The position numbers and the translations under genes are program-made. DNA of 64,000 nt from a virus. The DNA lies in IMG/VR virus record IMGVR_UViG_3300045988_109767, positions 1 through 64,000 of that record; one strand, 5' to 3'. The stretch's first letter is position 1. Every line of letters begins with the position of its first letter. Below, in pieces: positions 30,758 to 40,120 of this stretch. The notes beneath the pieces were generated by a model that searched no databases, had not been told where the DNA came from, and saw only the letters and a program-made list of their open reading frames with translations.

Positions 30758-30991
30758 TTACAATACTTTTGTCCCACAATTGTTATATCGTCCGTACTCT
30801 TTTTTCGTATCATTCAAGATTTCAAACACCATCTTCTTATGATCTTTGTTTGGCAACTTGTCTTTAATAGCCGATATTACACCAGCTATAGACGTAAAGC
30901 CTGAATCCGTTATTGAACATAGTAATAATCCCCTGTCATCGCTGGTGCTTATCGCTGAAGCCTTTATAATATCATTCTTATATATTCTCAT
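30758..30991 (-). CDS. hypothetical protein
   Basis: 77-aa ORF. Confidence 0.35.
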   Translation of the reverse strand: MRIYKNDIIKASAISTSDDRGLLLCSITDSGFTSIAGVISAIKDKLPNKDHKKMVFEILNDTKKEYGRYNNCGTKVL

Positions 30992-31011
30992 AACTTTTTT
31001 GTTTTATTGTT

Positions 31012-31122
31012 TGTGAGATGCCCAGAATCGAACCAGGACCGGTACATACATGCCGGCACGCCGCGTCATCCCCCTATATGATACAGAAATAGGCATGCCT
31101 ATCCTCACGAACCGACATGCCA
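31012..31122 (-). other. degenerate tRNA-like element A (T-arm plus 3' acceptor-like GGTTCGATTC...ATCTCACA; not a canonical cloverleaf)
   Basis: Plus strand reads tgtgagatgcccagaatcgaaccaggacc; shares GAATCGAACC and the ATCTCACA tail with element B and the T-arm with the real tRNAs at 39.8 kb; I could not pair the 5' acceptor or build a D arm. Confidence 0.35.
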
Positions 31123-31167
31123 AAACCCAAAACTTAATTTGATGAATAAAATAGATTAACAAAAATA

Positions 31168-31482
31168 CTATTCTAATTCTTTTATAATATCTTTCACAAT
31201 ATTCAGCCTTACCTCCTTCGTTTCTGGACTAAGACAACCAAACCACCCATAAAACGTTCTTGTTTCCTCTGGTTCTGTGGCCATACTTATCTTCTCTTCC
31301 AATTCCGGGAAATATATTCTCACCATTTCGTCTGAACGAAACTCATAGATATTTTTATGTGTTTTGAAATACATAAACACTACATTTCTTAACGCAACAC
31401 ATATGTATTCCCCATCCTCTAACCTATCAATCATCTCATATACCTTTTTCCATATGAATAATCGCTCTTCTTTTGTAAACAT
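31168..31482 (-). CDS. hypothetical protein
   Basis: 104-aa ORF. Confidence 0.45.
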   Translation of the reverse strand: MFTKEERLFIWKKVYEMIDRLEDGEYICVALRNVVFMYFKTHKNIYEFRSDEMVRIYFPELEEKISMATEPEETRTFYGWFGCLSPETKEVRLNIVKDIIKELE

Positions 31483-31490
31483 ATTCTTCT

Positions 31491-31838
31491 TTATTTTTGT
31501 GGTATTATTTGACTGTATGCAGACTTTTCCATGTACACAACACTATGTTCCTGTCCAAGGATTTTCTTTGCTGCCTCTTTCTTTATCGCACAATATCTCC
31601 CTGTACGATACGGATTCTTTTGATCTGATCCATCCTCGACTTCGATAATAAAACAACCTCCGTCATCTATTATCTTTTTGCAATTGTCACATACTCCGCC
31701 CGTGCATATATGATGCGGCGCCTGCCCTTTGATGTTATTTCCTAATAAAGCAATCCCCATCTCTTCGCCACATATCATGCAGACTTCTATAGACGGATTC
31801 AATCCGTGTTCTGGATGTAATGTAATACTGTCTTTCAT
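31491..31838 (-). CDS. hypothetical Cys-rich protein
   Basis: 115-aa ORF; CMICGE...CTGGVCDNCKK. Confidence 0.45.
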   Translation of the reverse strand: MKDSITLHPEHGLNPSIEVCMICGEEMGIALLGNNIKGQAPHHICTGGVCDNCKKIIDDGGCFIIEVEDGSDQKNPYRTGRYCAIKKEAAKKILGQEHSVVYMEKSAYSQIIPQK

Positions 31839-31864
31839 TTTCTTTCCTCCTTTGTTTTTAATAT

Positions 31865-31940
31865 TGTGTGAGATCGCCGGAATCGAACCGACCTACCGCA
31901 CCATGAATCCCATAAAGCAAATGCTCCGATCTTCGCAGAC
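31865..31940 (-). other. degenerate tRNA-like element B (T-arm GTCGG-TTCGATT-CCGGC plus acceptor-like GATCTCA-CA)
   Basis: Plus strand reads tgtgagatcgccggaatcgaaccgacc; partial 5' acceptor pairing (GAAGATC) only; too short for a D arm. Confidence 0.35.
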
Positions 31941-32180
31941 GGGAGCATTCTGTCTAAAGCATAAGAAAATTAATGAAGAAAATCTTCCTCACTTACGCCA
32001 TAGCATCTAAAATAGCTATCAACACTATTTCTATGACAAGCATAATAGAGAATGTCTTAAATATCTTTTTCATATCTCCTCCTTTTTTATCTGTTCTTTT
32101 CACGTTCCACAATAAACTGTTCCGGCTCTGCTCCGACCTACGTTCCACCTACAACCGCAGGCCTTAGCCCAAGGCGCCGC

Positions 32181-32441
32181 CTACTCCCCCTCTATGGCAG
32201 CCTGTTCGTACCTACAAATCCAATCTCCATCTATACAACTATTACTACGCGATAACAAACATTTATCCTTATAACAATCATAAAAAATACACCTCTCACA
32301 ACTGTAATCCCTAATTTCTACACAGCTAACTACCTTAGCATATACTATACCATCACTACCTTCTATTCCTCTTACCCCAAAAATAGAACCTTCTCCCTCC
32401 TTACTCAAATCTAAGTCAGGTGCAAAATCATATACGTTCAT
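32181..32441 (-). CDS. hypothetical Cys-rich small protein
   Basis: 86-aa ORF. Confidence 0.4.
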   Translation of the reverse strand: MNVYDFAPDLDLSKEGEGSIFGVRGIEGSDGIVYAKVVSCVEIRDYSCERCIFYDCYKDKCLLSRSNSCIDGDWICRYEQAAIEGE

Positions 32442-32515
32442 GTTGTTTATGTTTTAATTGTTATACATTCCGATTACTACTAATCTATAGAATATAGTTT
32501 TCAACTCTCAACCTA

Positions 32516-32694
32516 TTGAATTTTGTAGAATAAACTCACATTATGCTGTTTTAAAGCACTGTAAGTCTTAATTTTGTAGGAAAACCCTACATAATGCTGT
32601 TTTAAAACGCTGATCTGTTGAATTTTGTTGGCAGGAACTACATAACGCTGTTTTAAAACGCTGTAAGTCTTAATTTTGTGGGAAGACAGTGCCC
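32516..32694. repeat. tandem direct repeats, about 3.5 units of 50-52 bp (TTGAATTTTGTAG...ATGCTGTTTTAAAGCACTGTAAGTC)
   Basis: Units at 32516-32567, 32568-32617, 32618-32669 and a partial unit 32670-32694, each 80-90% identical to the others; intergenic. Confidence 0.85.
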
Positions 32695-33410
32695 TCCCTC
32701 TCCCCCTCTCCAACCCCGGCTAATCCTCCGACTTTCTGCATAGAAACTGCGCTCTCGGCCTCACTACAGGCATACGGAGAGCGCTACAAGCTTATACTAT
32801 GGCATGGGATATGGGGTGTTTAGAGATAATATCATTCCATAGAGAGAATAGAGAGCCTTCAGCCCACGCCCTACCGTCTGCTCCTCCTATCGAGATAGAT
32901 ATTCAAACCTATAATCAAAGCCAAAAACGAAAAGCAAAAGATCATTACAATATTATACTGATCTGCTCCGTACTCTAACATAGAACGGATACCAACTGAT
33001 AAAAAATATAGGTCAGCGACTAATAAAAACCACCACATAGAATAAAAAAAAATACAATAAGTATGTCCGAAAATACGGGTATTATAAAACCTAACTAATT
33101 GATAATCAAACATACCTCATTTTTAAGAAAAATACAATAAGCCTAATTTTCAATCCATAGAGACGAAAAAGGCGGCATCCTACACCATATTTTGGGTCAG
33201 AAAACCGCCTCCAGTTTCGTTTTAGACCAATTTTAACGACAGGATATAGACAAAATACCGGCGTTATATCCGAATACTCCTATTTTTGTTTCGTTTTAGA
33301 CCAATATAGCTCTCATCCGCCGTTCACTCTCAGAATATCCTACCCGTAAATAGAAAGAGTAGGATACAAAAATAGGACTGCTCCGATATTCGGAACAACC
33401 CTATTCCTGT

Positions 33411-33617
33411 TTAAATACTGTTTATGTTCTCCTTCACGTATGTTCGTGATGTATGGACTTTACGTTTGCATTTGTCCTTTCCTGTATCGGCATGATACGC
33501 TTCTTTGAGATCACGATACAACATAAATTCACGATACGCTCTTTTCCGCTTTTCTTTAGCTTCTTTCCTGGACAGACCGCGGACGTCTACCATATGAGAT
33601 TTAAATTTCCTTTCCAT
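33411..33617 (-). CDS. small basic protein (possible)
   Basis: 68 aa, Lys/Arg rich; lies in the gene-poor region. Confidence 0.3.
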   Translation of the reverse strand: MERKFKSHMVDVRGLSRKEAKEKRKRAYREFMLYRDLKEAYHADTGKDKCKRKVHTSRTYVKENINSI

Positions 33618-33651
33618 TTTCTTTATGCTTTAATTATGATTAACCCCAGCG

Positions 33652-33810
33652 GTTAAGTGCTTCGATATAGAAACCTTCCGCCTCTTTGTACTCACTTTCG
33701 CTCAATGTTTCCACCGTCTCGATATAGTTACGCAATGTTATTTTTACGCAACTGTTTTTAGATTTATTGAACGCTTCAATTAAAGCGTTGATCATTGCTT
33801 TCTTTTCCAT
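33652..33810 (-). CDS. small ORF (52 aa) not in the ORF track
   Basis: ATG (rc of cat 33808-33810): MEKKAMINALIEAFNKSKNSCVKITLRNYIETVETLSESEYKEAEGFYIEALN. Confidence 0.25.
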
Positions 33811-33833
33811 GCTATTATATTATTTATAATTTA

Positions 33834-33897
33834 GAGGTTGCTCCGGAATCGAACCGGACACGCATTCCTATCCTATAGAGATTTTATGCTACAACCA
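33834..33897 (-). other. degenerate tRNA-like element C (perfect T-arm TCCGG-TTCGATT-CCGGA, six-pair acceptor stem, no D arm)
   Basis: Plus strand reads gaggttgctccggaatcgaaccggac...acaacca; acceptor TGGTTGT/GCAACCT pairs over six positions; only 64 nt. Confidence 0.35.
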
Positions 33898-34392
33898 ACA
33901 GCCCGTAATTAGTACGTAGTTCTTGCGTACAGGCCCGTACTATGTTGTTATTATATTTTCCGTCTGCTACACAACTTAGCCACAAATAAAGGCGATTGTG
34001 TCCTTGCGCTTTGATACGGCACGTCCCTACATGGTAGGCTACATGCTTGTACCCTGTAATTTAATCTACAGCCTTGTTCTATTTTTTCGTGTAAGCAAGT
34101 AAGACACGTTTCGATCTGGAGATAAACCTCGTACAACGGCATGTTTTCCAAACTGTAATCACATACCTAACATGAATCACGCCTATTCGGGTGATTCATG
34201 CAGTAATACCAGCCCTTTAATTGCCAACGGCAAGGGCAACGGTATATCTATCTCCAATATGTAAAATAACTCTCTTTTTGTCAGCTTCAGTCTAAAGCAT
34301 ACGCGGGACGTGCACCCACTGACACTGGCGTACAGGCGCGTTAAGGTACGCGACAAACCTTTGGAGAGCTTAACGGCGCTCTCCGTGCCTTG

Positions 34393-39054: not shown

Positions 39055-39743
39055 TTTAATTTGTTTTTAAATATTCTACCTTTTTCACACTGAAGAATGC
39101 AGTCTCTCATGGGATGATCTTGTTCGTGATCGTCACACATCGGAAATTCATTTCCATAGGGGAAAGCAATGTGCGGGCACTGCGCCCTGAACGCATCCCA
39201 GGCCGACTTCCTCACAGCCTCAGCCCCGGCACGCACGCCTTTCTCTCTTTCCTTGGCTGGGTCAGCATACACGTTTGAAATAGCTCTTTTCTTCCAAGTA
39301 AGCATATTGTAATAAAACTTATCCACCAGTTTCCTACCCACTACATCAAACTTCTGTCTATGAATTAAAGGTGCGACCTTAACGACGTTCTTCCTATTTT
39401 TACTAACATCGACATAAATCAGACCAGCATAAGACGGAACTTCACTTACGTCAATCATATTAGGAGGACAGGCGTAATAGAAATAGTTTGGAGGATAGCT
39501 TATGACACCACCTACCTTAATAATGCCGTCTTTAAGAACCTTATGTTTTTTATCCTTTTTGAAGTCGTTAAAGAAATCTTGTTTAGACATCTTGACCTCT
39601 ACTTCATAAGCGTACAATGATCTTGTTATGGCCAGGAAGTCAGATTCCCAATCATATATATGGAGATTGTTAATAACATACATCGGATTACTTAACAGAT
39701 CCCTATTAAGGATCTTAAGCATTTGTTGCTCTGGGTAGTTCAT
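39051..39743 (-). CDS. hypothetical protein (possible PD-(D/E)XK-like core WESDF...EVEVK)
   Basis: 230-aa ORF; D...EVK motif is suggestive only. Confidence 0.45.
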   Translation of the reverse strand: MNYPEQQMLKILNRDLLSNPMYVINNLHIYDWESDFLAITRSLYAYEVEVKMSKQDFFNDFKKDKKHKVLKDGIIKVGGVISYPPNYFYYACPPNMIDVSEVPSYAGLIYVDVSKNRKNVVKVAPLIHRQKFDVVGRKLVDKFYYNMLTWKKRAISNVYADPAKEREKGVRAGAEAVRKSAWDAFRAQCPHIAFPYGNEFPMCDDHEQDHPMRDCILQCEKGRIFKNKLK

Positions 39744-39759
39744 TGTCTTACTTTTTTAG

Positions 39760-39831
39760 AGGCTTGTGGCGGAATCGAACCGCCCTACGAGATTTTGCAG
39801 ATCCCTGACTAAACCACTCATCCAACAAGCC
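39760..39831 (-). tRNA. tRNA-Cys (GCA)
   Basis: Manual cloverleaf: acceptor GGCTTGT/ACAAGCC; anticodon stem GGGAT/ATCTC; loop CTGCAAA; T-arm GGCGG-TTCGATT-CCGCC; discriminator U. Confidence 0.7.
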
Positions 39832-39834
39832 ATG

Positions 39835-39906
39835 TAGCCCAACCGGGAGTCGAACCCGGAACTAAAGTTTAGGAAACTTTTGTTATATCCGTTTAACTAC
39901 CAGGCT
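39835..39906 (-). tRNA. tRNA-Arg (CCT)
   Basis: Acceptor AGCCTGG/TTGGGCT with three G-U pairs; D-stem GTTA/TAAC; anticodon stem AAAGT/ACTTT; loop TTCCTAA; T-arm CCGGG-TTCGACT-CCCGG. Confidence 0.6.
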
Positions 39907-39975
39907 ATTTAATGTTTGCTATGTTCACACACCGCAAACATTCAGATAATTAACATTTCCACAAAAACTTAATCG

Positions 39976-40046
39976 TTATCCAAGGAGGATTCGAACCTCC
40001 GCTAACAGAACCAAAATCTGTTGTGCTACCACTACACCATTGGACA
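39976..40046 (-). tRNA. tRNA-Gln (TTG), U1:A72 as in bacterial tRNA-Gln
   Basis: Acceptor TGTCCAA/TTGGATA; D-stem GTGT/GCAC; anticodon stem ACAGA/TCTGT; loop TTTTGGT; T-arm GGAGG-TTCGAAT-CCTCC. Confidence 0.65.
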
Positions 40047-40047
40047 G

Positions 40048-40120
40048 TGGTCCCGGAGGGATTTGAACCCACGATCTTGCGGTTATGAGCCGCCTGCTTT
40101 TACCACTAAGCTACAGGACC
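40048..40120 (-). tRNA. tRNA with CAT anticodon (elongator Met or Ile-lysidine type)
   Basis: Acceptor GGTCCTG/CGGGACC; D-stem GCTT/AAGC; anticodon loop CTCATAA; T-loop TTCAAAT; one mismatch each in the anticodon stem and the T stem. Confidence 0.5.

Follow-up and report, generated by a model that had tools for sequence, protein, structure and literature searches.

We analysed a 64,000-nucleotide (nt) stretch of viral DNA (IMG/VR virus record IMGVR_UViG_3300045988_109767, positions 1 to 64,000; hereafter the window, to which all coordinates refer unless another record is named) that shares ~93% identity with crAssE-Sib (OR575929, 151 kb), an epsilon crAss-like phage of the human gut. Three tRNA-like elements, A, B and C, are sited in intergenic spacers among small genes of the window. 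They lie on the sense strand, the minus strand being the coding strand of the genes around them, and they end 23–30 nt upstream of a same-strand ATG. From their sequences, all three are predicted to be D-armless tRNA 'top halves', in which an acceptor-like stem of 6–7 base pairs (bp) is stacked on a canonical T-arm (GGUUCGAUUC). For crAssE-Sib, a genome start has been predicted with PhageTerm by its authors; it corresponds to window position ~33329 (~33328/33329), inside a ~970-nt gene-free stretch (32442–33410). Since this start lies between C and B, the small unannotated genes that surround A and B form a block read inward from it. The elements and their parts are as follows.

31025-31034, 31880-31889 and 33846-33855, minus strand: GGTTCGAWTC in A, B and C, respectively (motif scan)
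31868-31912, minus strand: element B, predicted mini tRNA-like top half of 45 nt
31912-31906, minus strand: B acceptor 5′ strand UGGGAUU (fold)
31905-31893, minus strand: B linker C-AUGGU-GCGGUAG (fold), its AUGGU invariant in relatives
31892-31888, 31887-31881 and 31880-31876, minus strand: B T-stem GUCGG, T-loop UUCGAUU and T-stem CCGGC (fold)
31875-31869 and 31868, minus strand: B acceptor 3′ strand GAUCUCA and the following C (fold)
31839-31867, minus strand: A-rich leader from B to the ATG at 31838 (ACACAAUAUUAAAAACAAAGGAGGAAAGAAA; sequence)
31014-31072, minus strand: element A, predicted top half with an extra arm (fold and relatives)
31072-31067, 31066-31058 and 31057-31038, minus strand: A acceptor 5′ strand GGGAUG, linker ACGCGGCGU and variable hairpin
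31037-31033, 31032-31026 and 31025-31021, minus strand: A T-stem CCUGG, T-loop UUCGAUU and T-stem CUGGG
31020-31015 and 31014, minus strand: A acceptor 3′ strand CAUCUC and the following A
30992-31013, minus strand: A-rich leader from A to the ATG at 30991 (CAAACAAUAAAACAAAAAAGUU; sequence)
33835-33896, minus strand: element C, predicted top half with a long arm replacing the D and anticodon arms (fold and relatives)
33896-33891, minus strand: C acceptor GGUUGU, followed by an A; then 33889-33886 with 33865-33862, stem GCAU/AUGC
33882-33879 with 33873-33870, minus strand: C inner hairpin AUCU/GGAU with a 5-nt loop; GUG precedes the T-arm
33858-33842, minus strand: C T-arm UCCGG UUCGAUU CCGGA; then 33841-33836, acceptor 3′ strand GCAACC, and 33835, U
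33811-33834, minus strand: AU-rich leader from C to the ATG at 33810 (sequence)

A first-pass annotation had placed T-arms of all three elements on the minus strand, and a motif scan with shuffled controls confirms them. GGTTCGAWTC occurs five times in the window against 0.20 expected (five or more in 0 of 100 shuffles); all five matches lie on the minus strand; A, B and C hold one each and true tRNAs the other two. When a T-arm with an adjacent 6-bp acceptor partner is sought, the window yields three true tRNAs together with A, B and C, compared with a mean of 0.5 in shuffled sequence. The common tail described for A and B (ATCTCACA) is indeed found twice in the window, both times at their 3′ ends, and C has the six-pair acceptor stem (GGTTGT/GCAACC) and lacks a D arm as stated. 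Two parts of that annotation need amendment: the acceptor-like stems of A (GGGATG/CATCTC) and B (UGGGAUU/GAUCUCA) had been overlooked, and of the span assigned to A (31012–31122) only the tRNA-like part stands, its first part (31121–31092) being a separate GNRA-capped hairpin.

None of the three forms a canonical cloverleaf, as had been suspected from folding by hand: ARAGORN with default settings and Rfam at the gathering score call only 39759–40120. Relaxed ARAGORN calls C alone of the three, as a poor 'tRNA-Pro(agg)', and Rfam at E ≤ 10 on short sub-windows (641 nt, 991 nt) returns neither RF00005 nor another credible family at A, B or C. The tRNAs reported for crAssE-Sib with tRNAscan-SE and RAST, six in number, lie elsewhere, and its GenBank record has none at the sites of the three elements. 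The intron mode of ARAGORN combines the 3′ half of B with sequence 2.65 kb upstream into a 'tRNA-Ile, 2654-nt intron'; we rejected this call, whose acceptor is mismatched and whose 'intron' holds genes as well as C. A T-arm-like hairpin on the plus strand at 5440–5475 (AGGAT TTCAAAC ATCCT) is followed by CATCTC, the same bases as the A acceptor 3′ strand; it is probably a chance occurrence, because no acceptor partner lies within 100 nt.

The T-arms consist of a 5-bp stem and a UUCRANN loop with G53-C61, and the acceptor 3′ strand follows directly, so that the acceptor-like stem abuts the T-stem as in tRNA. The D-arm and the 7-nt anticodon loop are absent; their place is taken by a short G-containing linker in B and by a linker plus an extra arm in A and C. 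Judged by sequence, A is probably a paralogue of B (GGGAUK ... SAUCUCACA) with an inserted arm, and C appears to be related by architecture alone. Several other assignments were discarded. TGAGG at 31107–31103 cannot serve as the acceptor 5′ strand of A, as this stretch belongs to the GUGA-capped hairpin, and an apparent G>A/C>U co-variation there consists of two independent wobble changes. A local extension of the T-hairpin of A and B (GGU/AUC, RNAfold) is not kept in relatives. The 37–52-amino-acid (aa) open reading frame (ORF) annotated over A in crAssE-Sib contains 1-nt and 14-nt indels in relatives.

Relatives were taken from the more than 134 IMG/VR contigs that encode the neighbouring 200-aa protein, and 148 loci of A, 160 of B and 124 of C were recovered at 88–100% identity. 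The proposed pairs are standard in 98.9% (A; 47 distinct sequences), 99.4% (B; 35) and 99.6% (C; 24) of cells, compared with 26–55% in controls with slid partners (26–47% for A alone). In 35 distinct relatives, the acceptor cells of B are 100% and its T-stem cells 99.4% paired. Double-sided changes affect three pairs in A, two in B and four in C, numbers that are matched by 0, 3 and 7 of 500 shuffles, respectively; the four pairs of C (10 cells) are located in its T-stem and inner hairpin.

Individual substitutions illustrate how pairing is kept. An acceptor pair of A is G-C in 44 sequences, G-U in 2 (crAssE-Sib among them) and A-U in 1, and wobble pairs in the T-stem of A become Watson–Crick pairs in 6–8 relatives. 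One relative has AAUUCC instead of GAUCUC in the B acceptor 3′ strand, a change of three bases that leaves all pairs intact; in the B T-stem, UC and CU are swapped (U-G/C-G to C-G/U-G), and a G-C pair changes to A-U. The T-stem of C shows two C-G to U-A changes, its inner hairpin ranges from C-G through U-G to U-A, and its acceptor U-G is U-A in 4 relatives. Since many of these pairs are G-U and would thus be A-C mismatches on the other strand, an RNA of mRNA sense is indicated. T-loop positions 54–58 are almost invariant and positions 59–60 variable, as in real tRNAs, and the acceptor/T-arm minihelix is conserved far above its flanks. Beyond the minihelix, the start of the B leader (ACACAA) and CACAAAC in the A leader are nearly invariant among relatives.

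Genes beside the elements come and go or are exchanged for others, but the elements stay in place. B and A are separated by 504 to 2209 nt in relatives, and a 134-aa gene directly follows B in about half of them, crAssE-Sib included. The variable hairpin of A is deleted in two contigs (L123 and L155) with the remainder intact, and in L094 the hairpin upstream of A has been lost together with the preceding gene, A being retained. Contig L121 carries a fourth composite, in which a GUGA hairpin is followed by a tRNA-like top half and a CACAAA tail. In a further IMG/VR contig, L180 (minus strand, ~7691–7777), the 5′ part of B through the T-loop is joined to the 3′ T-stem strand, acceptor and tail of A. 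Everything between the two T-loops, genes included, is missing, and the hybrid T-stem has 3/5 pairs; the existence of this clean B/A hybrid indicates that the repeated T-loops can mediate deletion.

A and B each follow a hairpin:

31921-31948, minus strand: GNRA-capped hairpin before B, AUGCUCC-C-GUCU-GCGA-AGAU-C-GGAGCAU, then a U-rich tract (covariation)
31092-31121, minus strand: GNRA-capped hairpin before A, GGCAUGUC-G-GUUC-GUGA-GGAU-A-GGCAUGCC, then a U-rich tract (RNAalifold)

Both hairpins follow small genes and have the same design, with 7–8 bp, a 1×1 internal loop, 4 bp, a GUGA or GCGA tetraloop and a U-rich tail. In the hairpin before B, pair 31948/31921 is A-U in 27, G-C in 17 and G-U in 7 of 52 distinct sequences, and two more pairs are double-changed; in the hairpin before A, 98.8% of cells are paired and two pairs have double changes. 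A third hairpin of this design (30701–30672, minus strand) is not followed by a tRNA-like element. Because this copy stands alone, we read the GNRA-capped hairpins as the usual terminator-like or 3′-end hairpins of the phage, and the one before B would accordingly be a putative terminator or 3′-end protector. Scans with consensus promoters and terminators were uninformative, and a recurrent CGGAGCA motif in 31900–33900 turned out to consist of pieces of unrelated hairpins.

Elements of this kind are not confined to the crAssE-Sib lineage. A first scan of IMG/VR (T-loop, 9–10 nt, ACAAA) gave at least 59 matches outside ARAGORN genes, at least 47 of them with full T-stems. At least a dozen are short elements with a 5–6-bp acceptor, an 11–24-nt linker, a T-arm, the acceptor 3′ strand, a leader and a start codon; their linkers often begin with A-Y-G-G-U. 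A second scan (ATGGTW-N7-10-GGTTCGATTCC) was independent of the tail and built to exclude B, and gave at least 122 matches. Among the matches listed, 4 fall in ARAGORN tRNA or transfer-messenger RNA (tmRNA) calls and nearly all others have a full T-stem, while 67 (54 distinct) combine full T-stems with at least 5/6 acceptor pairs at the expected place, against ~10 by chance. At permissive thresholds, the mini elements of other phages match no family in Rfam 15.

From 42 such elements, all of phages outside this lineage, we built covariance model R1 (6–7-bp acceptor, AUGGU linker of 10–14 nt, T-arm, acceptor 3′ strand). With filters off, its best match in the window is B, which is matched at full length (model positions 1–43) with 26.4 bits and a rough E of 3e-4; the crAssE-Sib copy of B scores 24.5 bits. 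True tRNAs are matched in the T-arm only, as is C (15.4 bits), A is not reported at E ≤ 10, and in crAss001 there is no full-length match, the best reaching 17 bits. Both A and C lack AUGGU and have extra arms. Since a model derived from unrelated phages finds B at full length, B belongs, as far as sequence can tell, to a class of phage mini tRNA-like elements, ~45 nt long, widespread and unannotated, that are composed of acceptor, AUGGU linker, T-arm and acceptor 3′ strand.

The class has a consistent position. Among the matches listed, 56 of the 58 decidable cases are co-oriented with local genes, the median distances are 53 nt past the upstream stop and 54 nt ahead of the next start, and CCA follows the stem in 4/102, C-(U/A)-A often standing there instead. 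The downstream genes are unrelated to one another, and in two cases (L272/L340 and L096/L172) the same element precedes different genes. We also observed, in an unrelated phage of higher GC content (L096/L098), a D-armless element GAAATG ... GTTGGTTCGATTCCAAC CATTTC ACAAG that precedes a DNA methyltransferase gene; the GAAATG ... CATTTC element of L172 has another gene after it. The same phage has a tRNA-like gene with a 6-nt anticodon loop (L098 2720–2795), called 'tRNA-?' by ARAGORN. An incomplete literature search found no account of such phage elements, and an earlier description is possible. On the present comparison, the novelty would lie in how minimal this element of tRNA-like processing or mimicry is and in its occurrence in a new host, phage operons.

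The closest counterparts are the t-elements of plant mitochondria, which were found by a GGTTCRANYCC scan and at whose borders mRNA ends generated by RNase P and RNase Z fall (PMC1920247, Forner et al. 2007). Like A, B and C, they carry the T-arm motif outside canonical tRNAs in a non-canonical fold with an acceptor stem and no encoded CCA, and they immediately precede mRNA 5′ ends or follow 3′ ends, where cleavage by RNase P or RNase Z has been proposed or shown (PMC1920247). In sequence, the phage elements stand on the sense strand 23–30 nt before start codons, with A and B after hairpins. They differ from t-elements in belonging to a phage rather than an organelle, in the small size of B (45 nt, without D or anticodon arm), in the AUGGU linker and in forming a large phage sequence family. 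Whereas several t-element ends have been mapped experimentally, we infer cleavage of the phage elements.

In the long non-coding RNAs MALAT1 and NEAT1, an embedded tRNA-like structure (mascRNA and menRNA, respectively) recruits RNase P and RNase Z, and one of the cuts generates the 3′ end of the upstream RNA. C has a similar layout, as it follows ~500 nt of conserved sequence that is a putative structured non-coding RNA. Differences are that mascRNA is a full cloverleaf mimic from mammals, whereas the phage elements have no D or anticodon arms and their downstream product is an mRNA. The stretch in question (33897–34392, minus strand) is gene-free in practice and 85–99% conserved. RNAalifold on 43 distinct relatives predicts many hairpins, at least eight of them with double-sided changes, and in the hairpin at ~34200–34170 the entire interior is swapped among relatives, which nevertheless retain a hairpin. 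The coding sequence annotated there in crAssE-Sib (WOZ57218.1) contains 1-nt indels, the folding z-score is -2.7, and Rfam at permissive thresholds gives no match. Possibly, the stretch is a long structured RNA with its 3′ end set at C. A tmRNA-like closure of 33811–34392 was considered and rejected: the 5-bp distal partner that RNAalifold proposes for the C acceptor 3′ strand has no covariation and is broken in 2/215 cells.

Bacterial Y RNAs of the YrlA type are tRNA mimics with a canonical T-arm that occur in Ro60-encoding phages and are substrates of RNase P, TruB and CCA addition (PMC4201824, Chen et al. 2014; RF02553). Their order is permuted, from T-arm through a closed acceptor stem-loop to D-arm, and they contain a GNCGAAN0-1G Ro-binding motif and are found within ~4 kb of rsr, on its strand (PMC4201824). 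In A, B and C, by contrast, the strands run in the order usual for tRNA; D-arm and Ro-binding motif are absent, RF02553 does not match, and rsr is ~75 kb away.

In tmRNA, the acceptor strands are ~300 nt apart and enclose pseudoknots and the tag ORF, the molecule ends in CCA, and a G3-U70 pair directs alanylation. Neither ARAGORN -m nor Rfam calls a tmRNA at A, B or C, and a G-U pair at 3:70 exists in A and B only if the stem is read as 7 bp; in some relatives it is A-U or G-C. The likeness lies in the tRNA-like domain, which has acceptor and T-arm without an anticodon arm and a short GG stretch for the D-loop (see also PMC3929946). Armless and D-armless mitochondrial tRNAs of nematodes and arachnids are similarly short (42–60 nt) and are still processed and CCA-added; they keep the anticodon arm and decode, whereas the phage elements keep T-arm and acceptor and have no anticodon arm (PMC6158502). 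In summary, A, B and C are not canonical tRNAs, YrlA RNAs or tmRNAs, and A and B are not attachment-site (att) fragments.

Structured intercistronic elements are also familiar from other phages: RNase III hairpins define the individual early mRNAs of T7, and promoter-early stem-loops of the T4 type flank exchangeable genes. These share with A, B and C the position in small-gene blocks and differ in the enzyme involved and in being plain hairpins without tRNA mimicry.

Elsewhere in the window, two features bear on tRNA metabolism:

39759-40120, minus strand: four true tRNA genes (Met, Gln, Arg, Cys), called by ARAGORN with default settings and by Rfam at the gathering score
17688-18350, minus strand: 220-aa nucleotidyltransferase with motif GGCFKNILSGERVKDIDIFF, 97% identical to WOZ57379.1

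None of the four tRNA genes encodes CCA, and the cluster lies between two same-strand ORFs, 15 nt upstream of the one starting at 39743. These features suggest that transcripts of this phage may already rely on host RNase P, RNase Z-type processing and CCA addition. The 220-aa protein is named poly(A) polymerase/CCA-adding enzyme in the crAssE-Sib annotation; its match to PHROG 1614 'nucleotidyltransferase' (E = 1.5e-8) is the sole database support for that name, as sequence searches of Pfam, NCBIfam and PDB gave no match. We take its GG...D.D motif to be of the class-II CCA-adding/poly(A)-polymerase type. The phage also encodes a PNK-type 3′-phosphatase.

Outside the window, this phage lineage encodes Ro60 (rsr) and a YrlA-like RNA. 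The latter (RF02553, 28.5 bits, E = 0.0024, below the gathering score; L224 10601–10705, equivalent to OR575929 72601–72705) is unannotated in OR575929 and lies directly upstream of tRNA-Tyr, tRNA-Lys and the Ro60 (Rsr) gene in crAssE-Sib. In crAss001 (L461 46200–46600, MH675552 ~96200–96600), a 900-nt gene-free stretch beside a TROVE (Ro60) gene harbours a pair of RNAs that lack annotation: a tRNA (RF00005, 46.6 bits) whose anticodon arm is interrupted by 82 inserted nt, and a tRNA-like RNA of ~142 nt (GGGGATG ... GTTGGTTCGAGTCCAAC CATCCCC A CACAAAG) whose acceptor and tail are like those of element A.

The gene-free stretch 32442–33410, which contains the position of the predicted genome start, has a 51-nt tandem repeat at 32519–32679 (3.2 copies, each with a TTTTAAAA-centred near-palindrome), ATTGGTCTAAAACGAAAC twice and several terminator-like hairpins. 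Many IMG/VR contigs terminate within it. It is a candidate packaging site, origin or early-promoter region.

The first-pass annotation had offered three origins for A, B and C: decaying tRNA genes, RNase P/Z processing signals that punctuate polycistronic transcripts, and 3′ tRNA fragments of the attP type. The second appears to fit best, with processing determinants kept, decoding determinants lost and an intercistronic position on the sense strand. We favour it with a probability of roughly 0.45. The stack of acceptor and T-arm is the surface on which RNase P, RNase Z, the CCA-adding enzyme, TruB and TrmA recognise their substrates. What the elements retain is this coaxial stack, a strict T-loop and a G-containing linker, which, with its GG, could mimic the elbow between D-loop and T-loop. 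Because the processing-enzyme surface is kept and the parts for aminoacylation and decoding are lost, we propose that the elements are excised by the host tRNA-maturation machinery.

According to this proposal, after RNase P cleavage on the 5′ side of the acceptor stem, the upstream mRNA would be trimmed back to its protective GNRA-capped hairpin. RNase Z would be expected to cut after the discriminator, since no CCA is encoded, which would leave the downstream gene with a standard short, A-rich, unstructured leader of 23–30 nt. In this way, small, often exchanged gene cassettes would be insulated from one another independently of context, whatever gene follows. CCA could be added to the excised minihelix of 45–60 nt, perhaps by the phage nucleotidyltransferase, and a further role for it is possible. 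Small ORFs of crAss001 (gp5–gp8, L460 2271–5654) lie between tRNA genes at distances of a few to ~20 nt, and their mRNAs would have to be freed by tRNA processing; this layout suggests that transcripts of these phages are already cut by host tRNA-processing enzymes.

A number of points weigh against this interpretation and the structures behind it. Transcription through the elements, their cleavage and CCA addition are all inferred, and processing is assigned to presumed host enzymes. The hairpins upstream of A and B resemble intrinsic terminators; if they are efficient, transcription would end before the element. A and C have a stack of 6+5 bp, not the 7+5 bp that RNase P and RNase Z measure, and processing alone does not explain the near-invariant tail (ACACAA/ACAAAC). 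Among the class matches listed, only about half lie within 60 nt of a start codon. As to the folds, single sequences have folding energies no better than those of shuffles (z from +0.02 to -1.6), B taken by itself is paired differently by RNAfold, and only comparison among relatives supports the fold. These relatives are close (88–100% identical), and few independent substitutions therefore underlie the covariation; moreover, the structures were derived from the same sequences that were used in the pairing test, and the paired figure of 90.7% for the R1 seed is partly circular, as the seed was chosen for pairing.

The most serious alternative, which we nevertheless consider unlikely, is that the mini tRNA-like RNAs are themselves the product and that their position before genes is incidental. 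They could serve as decoys or sponges for factors that bind the acceptor end or the elbow, for example defence toxins that modify or cut tRNA 3′ ends, or as partners of phage RNA enzymes such as the nucleotidyltransferase, Ro60 and the PNK-phosphatase. The phage does possess a CCA-adding-like nucleotidyltransferase, a PNK-type 3′-phosphatase and, outside the window, Ro60 and a YrlA-like RNA, and the tRNA-like RNA of crAss001 that adjoins the TROVE gene has an acceptor and tail like those of A. A minihelix with a strict T-loop that is conserved far more than its flanks, and a widespread class whose downstream genes are unrelated, would also be expected of such a product. However, no promoter or terminator of their own is visible; B begins 9 nt after a hairpin and is directly followed by leader and gene. 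An association with Ro60 is not general, as a homologue is found in the flanks of 2/234 mini-element loci, and A, B and C have neither a Ro60-binding motif nor a YrlA match. No specific target can be named. A function of the RNAs themselves is compatible with punctuation by RNase P and RNase Z and may add to it rather than replace it.

Rather improbable, in our view, are cis-acting structures that are never cleaved and that insulate the A-rich ribosome-loading leader, block decay (5′–3′ or 3′–5′) or bind a tRNA-binding protein that tunes translation. The short, constant distance to the start codon, the A-rich unstructured leaders and the sense-strand position agree with such a role, as does the retention of an element whose upstream hairpin is deleted (L094). 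Since any stable hairpin would insulate, though, the canonical T-loop with its tRNA-like constraints and the stacked acceptor are left unexplained, and avoidance of encoded CCA (4/102 among the matches listed) fits a 3′-processing substrate.

A role at the DNA level, as recombination hot spots, mobile regulatory cassettes (cf. the T4-type promoter-early stem-loops) or promoters of a phage RNA polymerase, is still harder to reconcile with the data. It would account for the highly variable gene content beside the elements, for the clean B/A hybrid in L180 and for the pairs L272/L340 and L096/L172, in which a common element has differing downstream genes. Yet the helices are kept through G-U pairs, which are mismatched on the other strand and destabilising in DNA, the stems covary although a linear promoter or a patch of homology does not need them, and the strand bias is strict. 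The stretch common to A and B is only ~18 nt, a poor substrate for frequent recombination, and one hybrid was seen in ~150 genomes; recombination at repeats can, in any case, be a side effect of any repeated functional element.

Very little speaks for the two remaining proposals of the first-pass annotation, decaying tRNA pseudogenes and 3′ tRNA fragments of the attP/attB type. An origin from tRNA genes is plausible, because the T-arm consensus is perfect and the phage carries tRNA genes. Decay is contradicted by the retention of the elements in all ~120–160 related contigs, with a near-invariant T-loop and with wobble and compensatory changes that preserve the structure. It is contradicted as well by the single truncated design shared by the three paralogues and by more than 100 examples from unrelated phages, which is unlike random decay. 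As to att fragments, our scan took one genome per species, 185,579 bacterial and archaeal species in all, and looked for the T-loop with an ATYTCACA tail, a pattern that covers A and B. Of 23 matches, 0 are in tRNA genes; 22 are chance matches without a T-stem and 1 is a contig of this phage. No known host tRNA 3′ end is therefore copied in A or B. In addition, the elements have their own 5′ acceptor strand, which an attP core does not need, and the crAssE-Sib annotation shows no integrase near A, B or C. For A and B, pseudogenes and att fragments are thus largely refuted. The single phage match (L208, NZ_DXLG01000138.1) is a 3.9-kb contig with B and its neighbours in a 'Veillonella sp.' metagenome-assembled genome; as evidence of the host it is weak at best, an artefact of binning being more likely.

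Finally, that A, B and C are functional non-canonical decoding tRNAs overlooked by the programs is hardly credible, even though D-armless and armless tRNAs are known in animal mitochondria and relaxed ARAGORN assigns C an 'anticodon', because the 13 nt between the acceptor and T stems of B leave no room for an anticodon arm, the central hairpin of A has a 10-nt loop, is variable and is deleted in some relatives, the 5-nt loop of C changes in sequence, and none of the three has a 7-nt anticodon loop.

Whatever the mechanism, the class is common (more than 100 distinct examples in the two scans), strand-specific and absent from Rfam, and the annotation of phage genomes and gut viromes would gain from a proper family model. 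Because of the link to phage tRNA-end enzymes and Ro60, cultured crAss-like phages offer a way to test the question. If the elements are processed as proposed, they would also be a new feature for annotators to mask, as several are now annotated as hypothetical proteins (over A and next to C in OR575929), and would supply synthetic multi-gene or guide-RNA arrays with natural, very short spacers cleavable by RNase P/Z.

To our knowledge, tRNA punctuation has so far been known from mitochondria and a few nuclear long non-coding RNAs. Its action through RNase P and RNase Z at the three phage elements would add bacteriophage operons, with a purpose-built minimal substrate, and would explain the uniform, context-independent mRNA ends of small, rapidly exchanged phage genes. 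In its broadest form, which seems to us possible but doubtful, many tailed phages, including the abundant crAss-like phages of the human gut, would possess a dedicated family of ~45-nt anticodonless mini tRNAs (acceptor stem, AUGGU elbow linker, T-arm) that host RNase P and RNase Z excise from mRNAs. These would be portable insulators that mark gene cassettes or travel with them, and the CCA-tailed minihelices could be a second product, for instance decoys for defence systems directed at tRNA acceptor ends.

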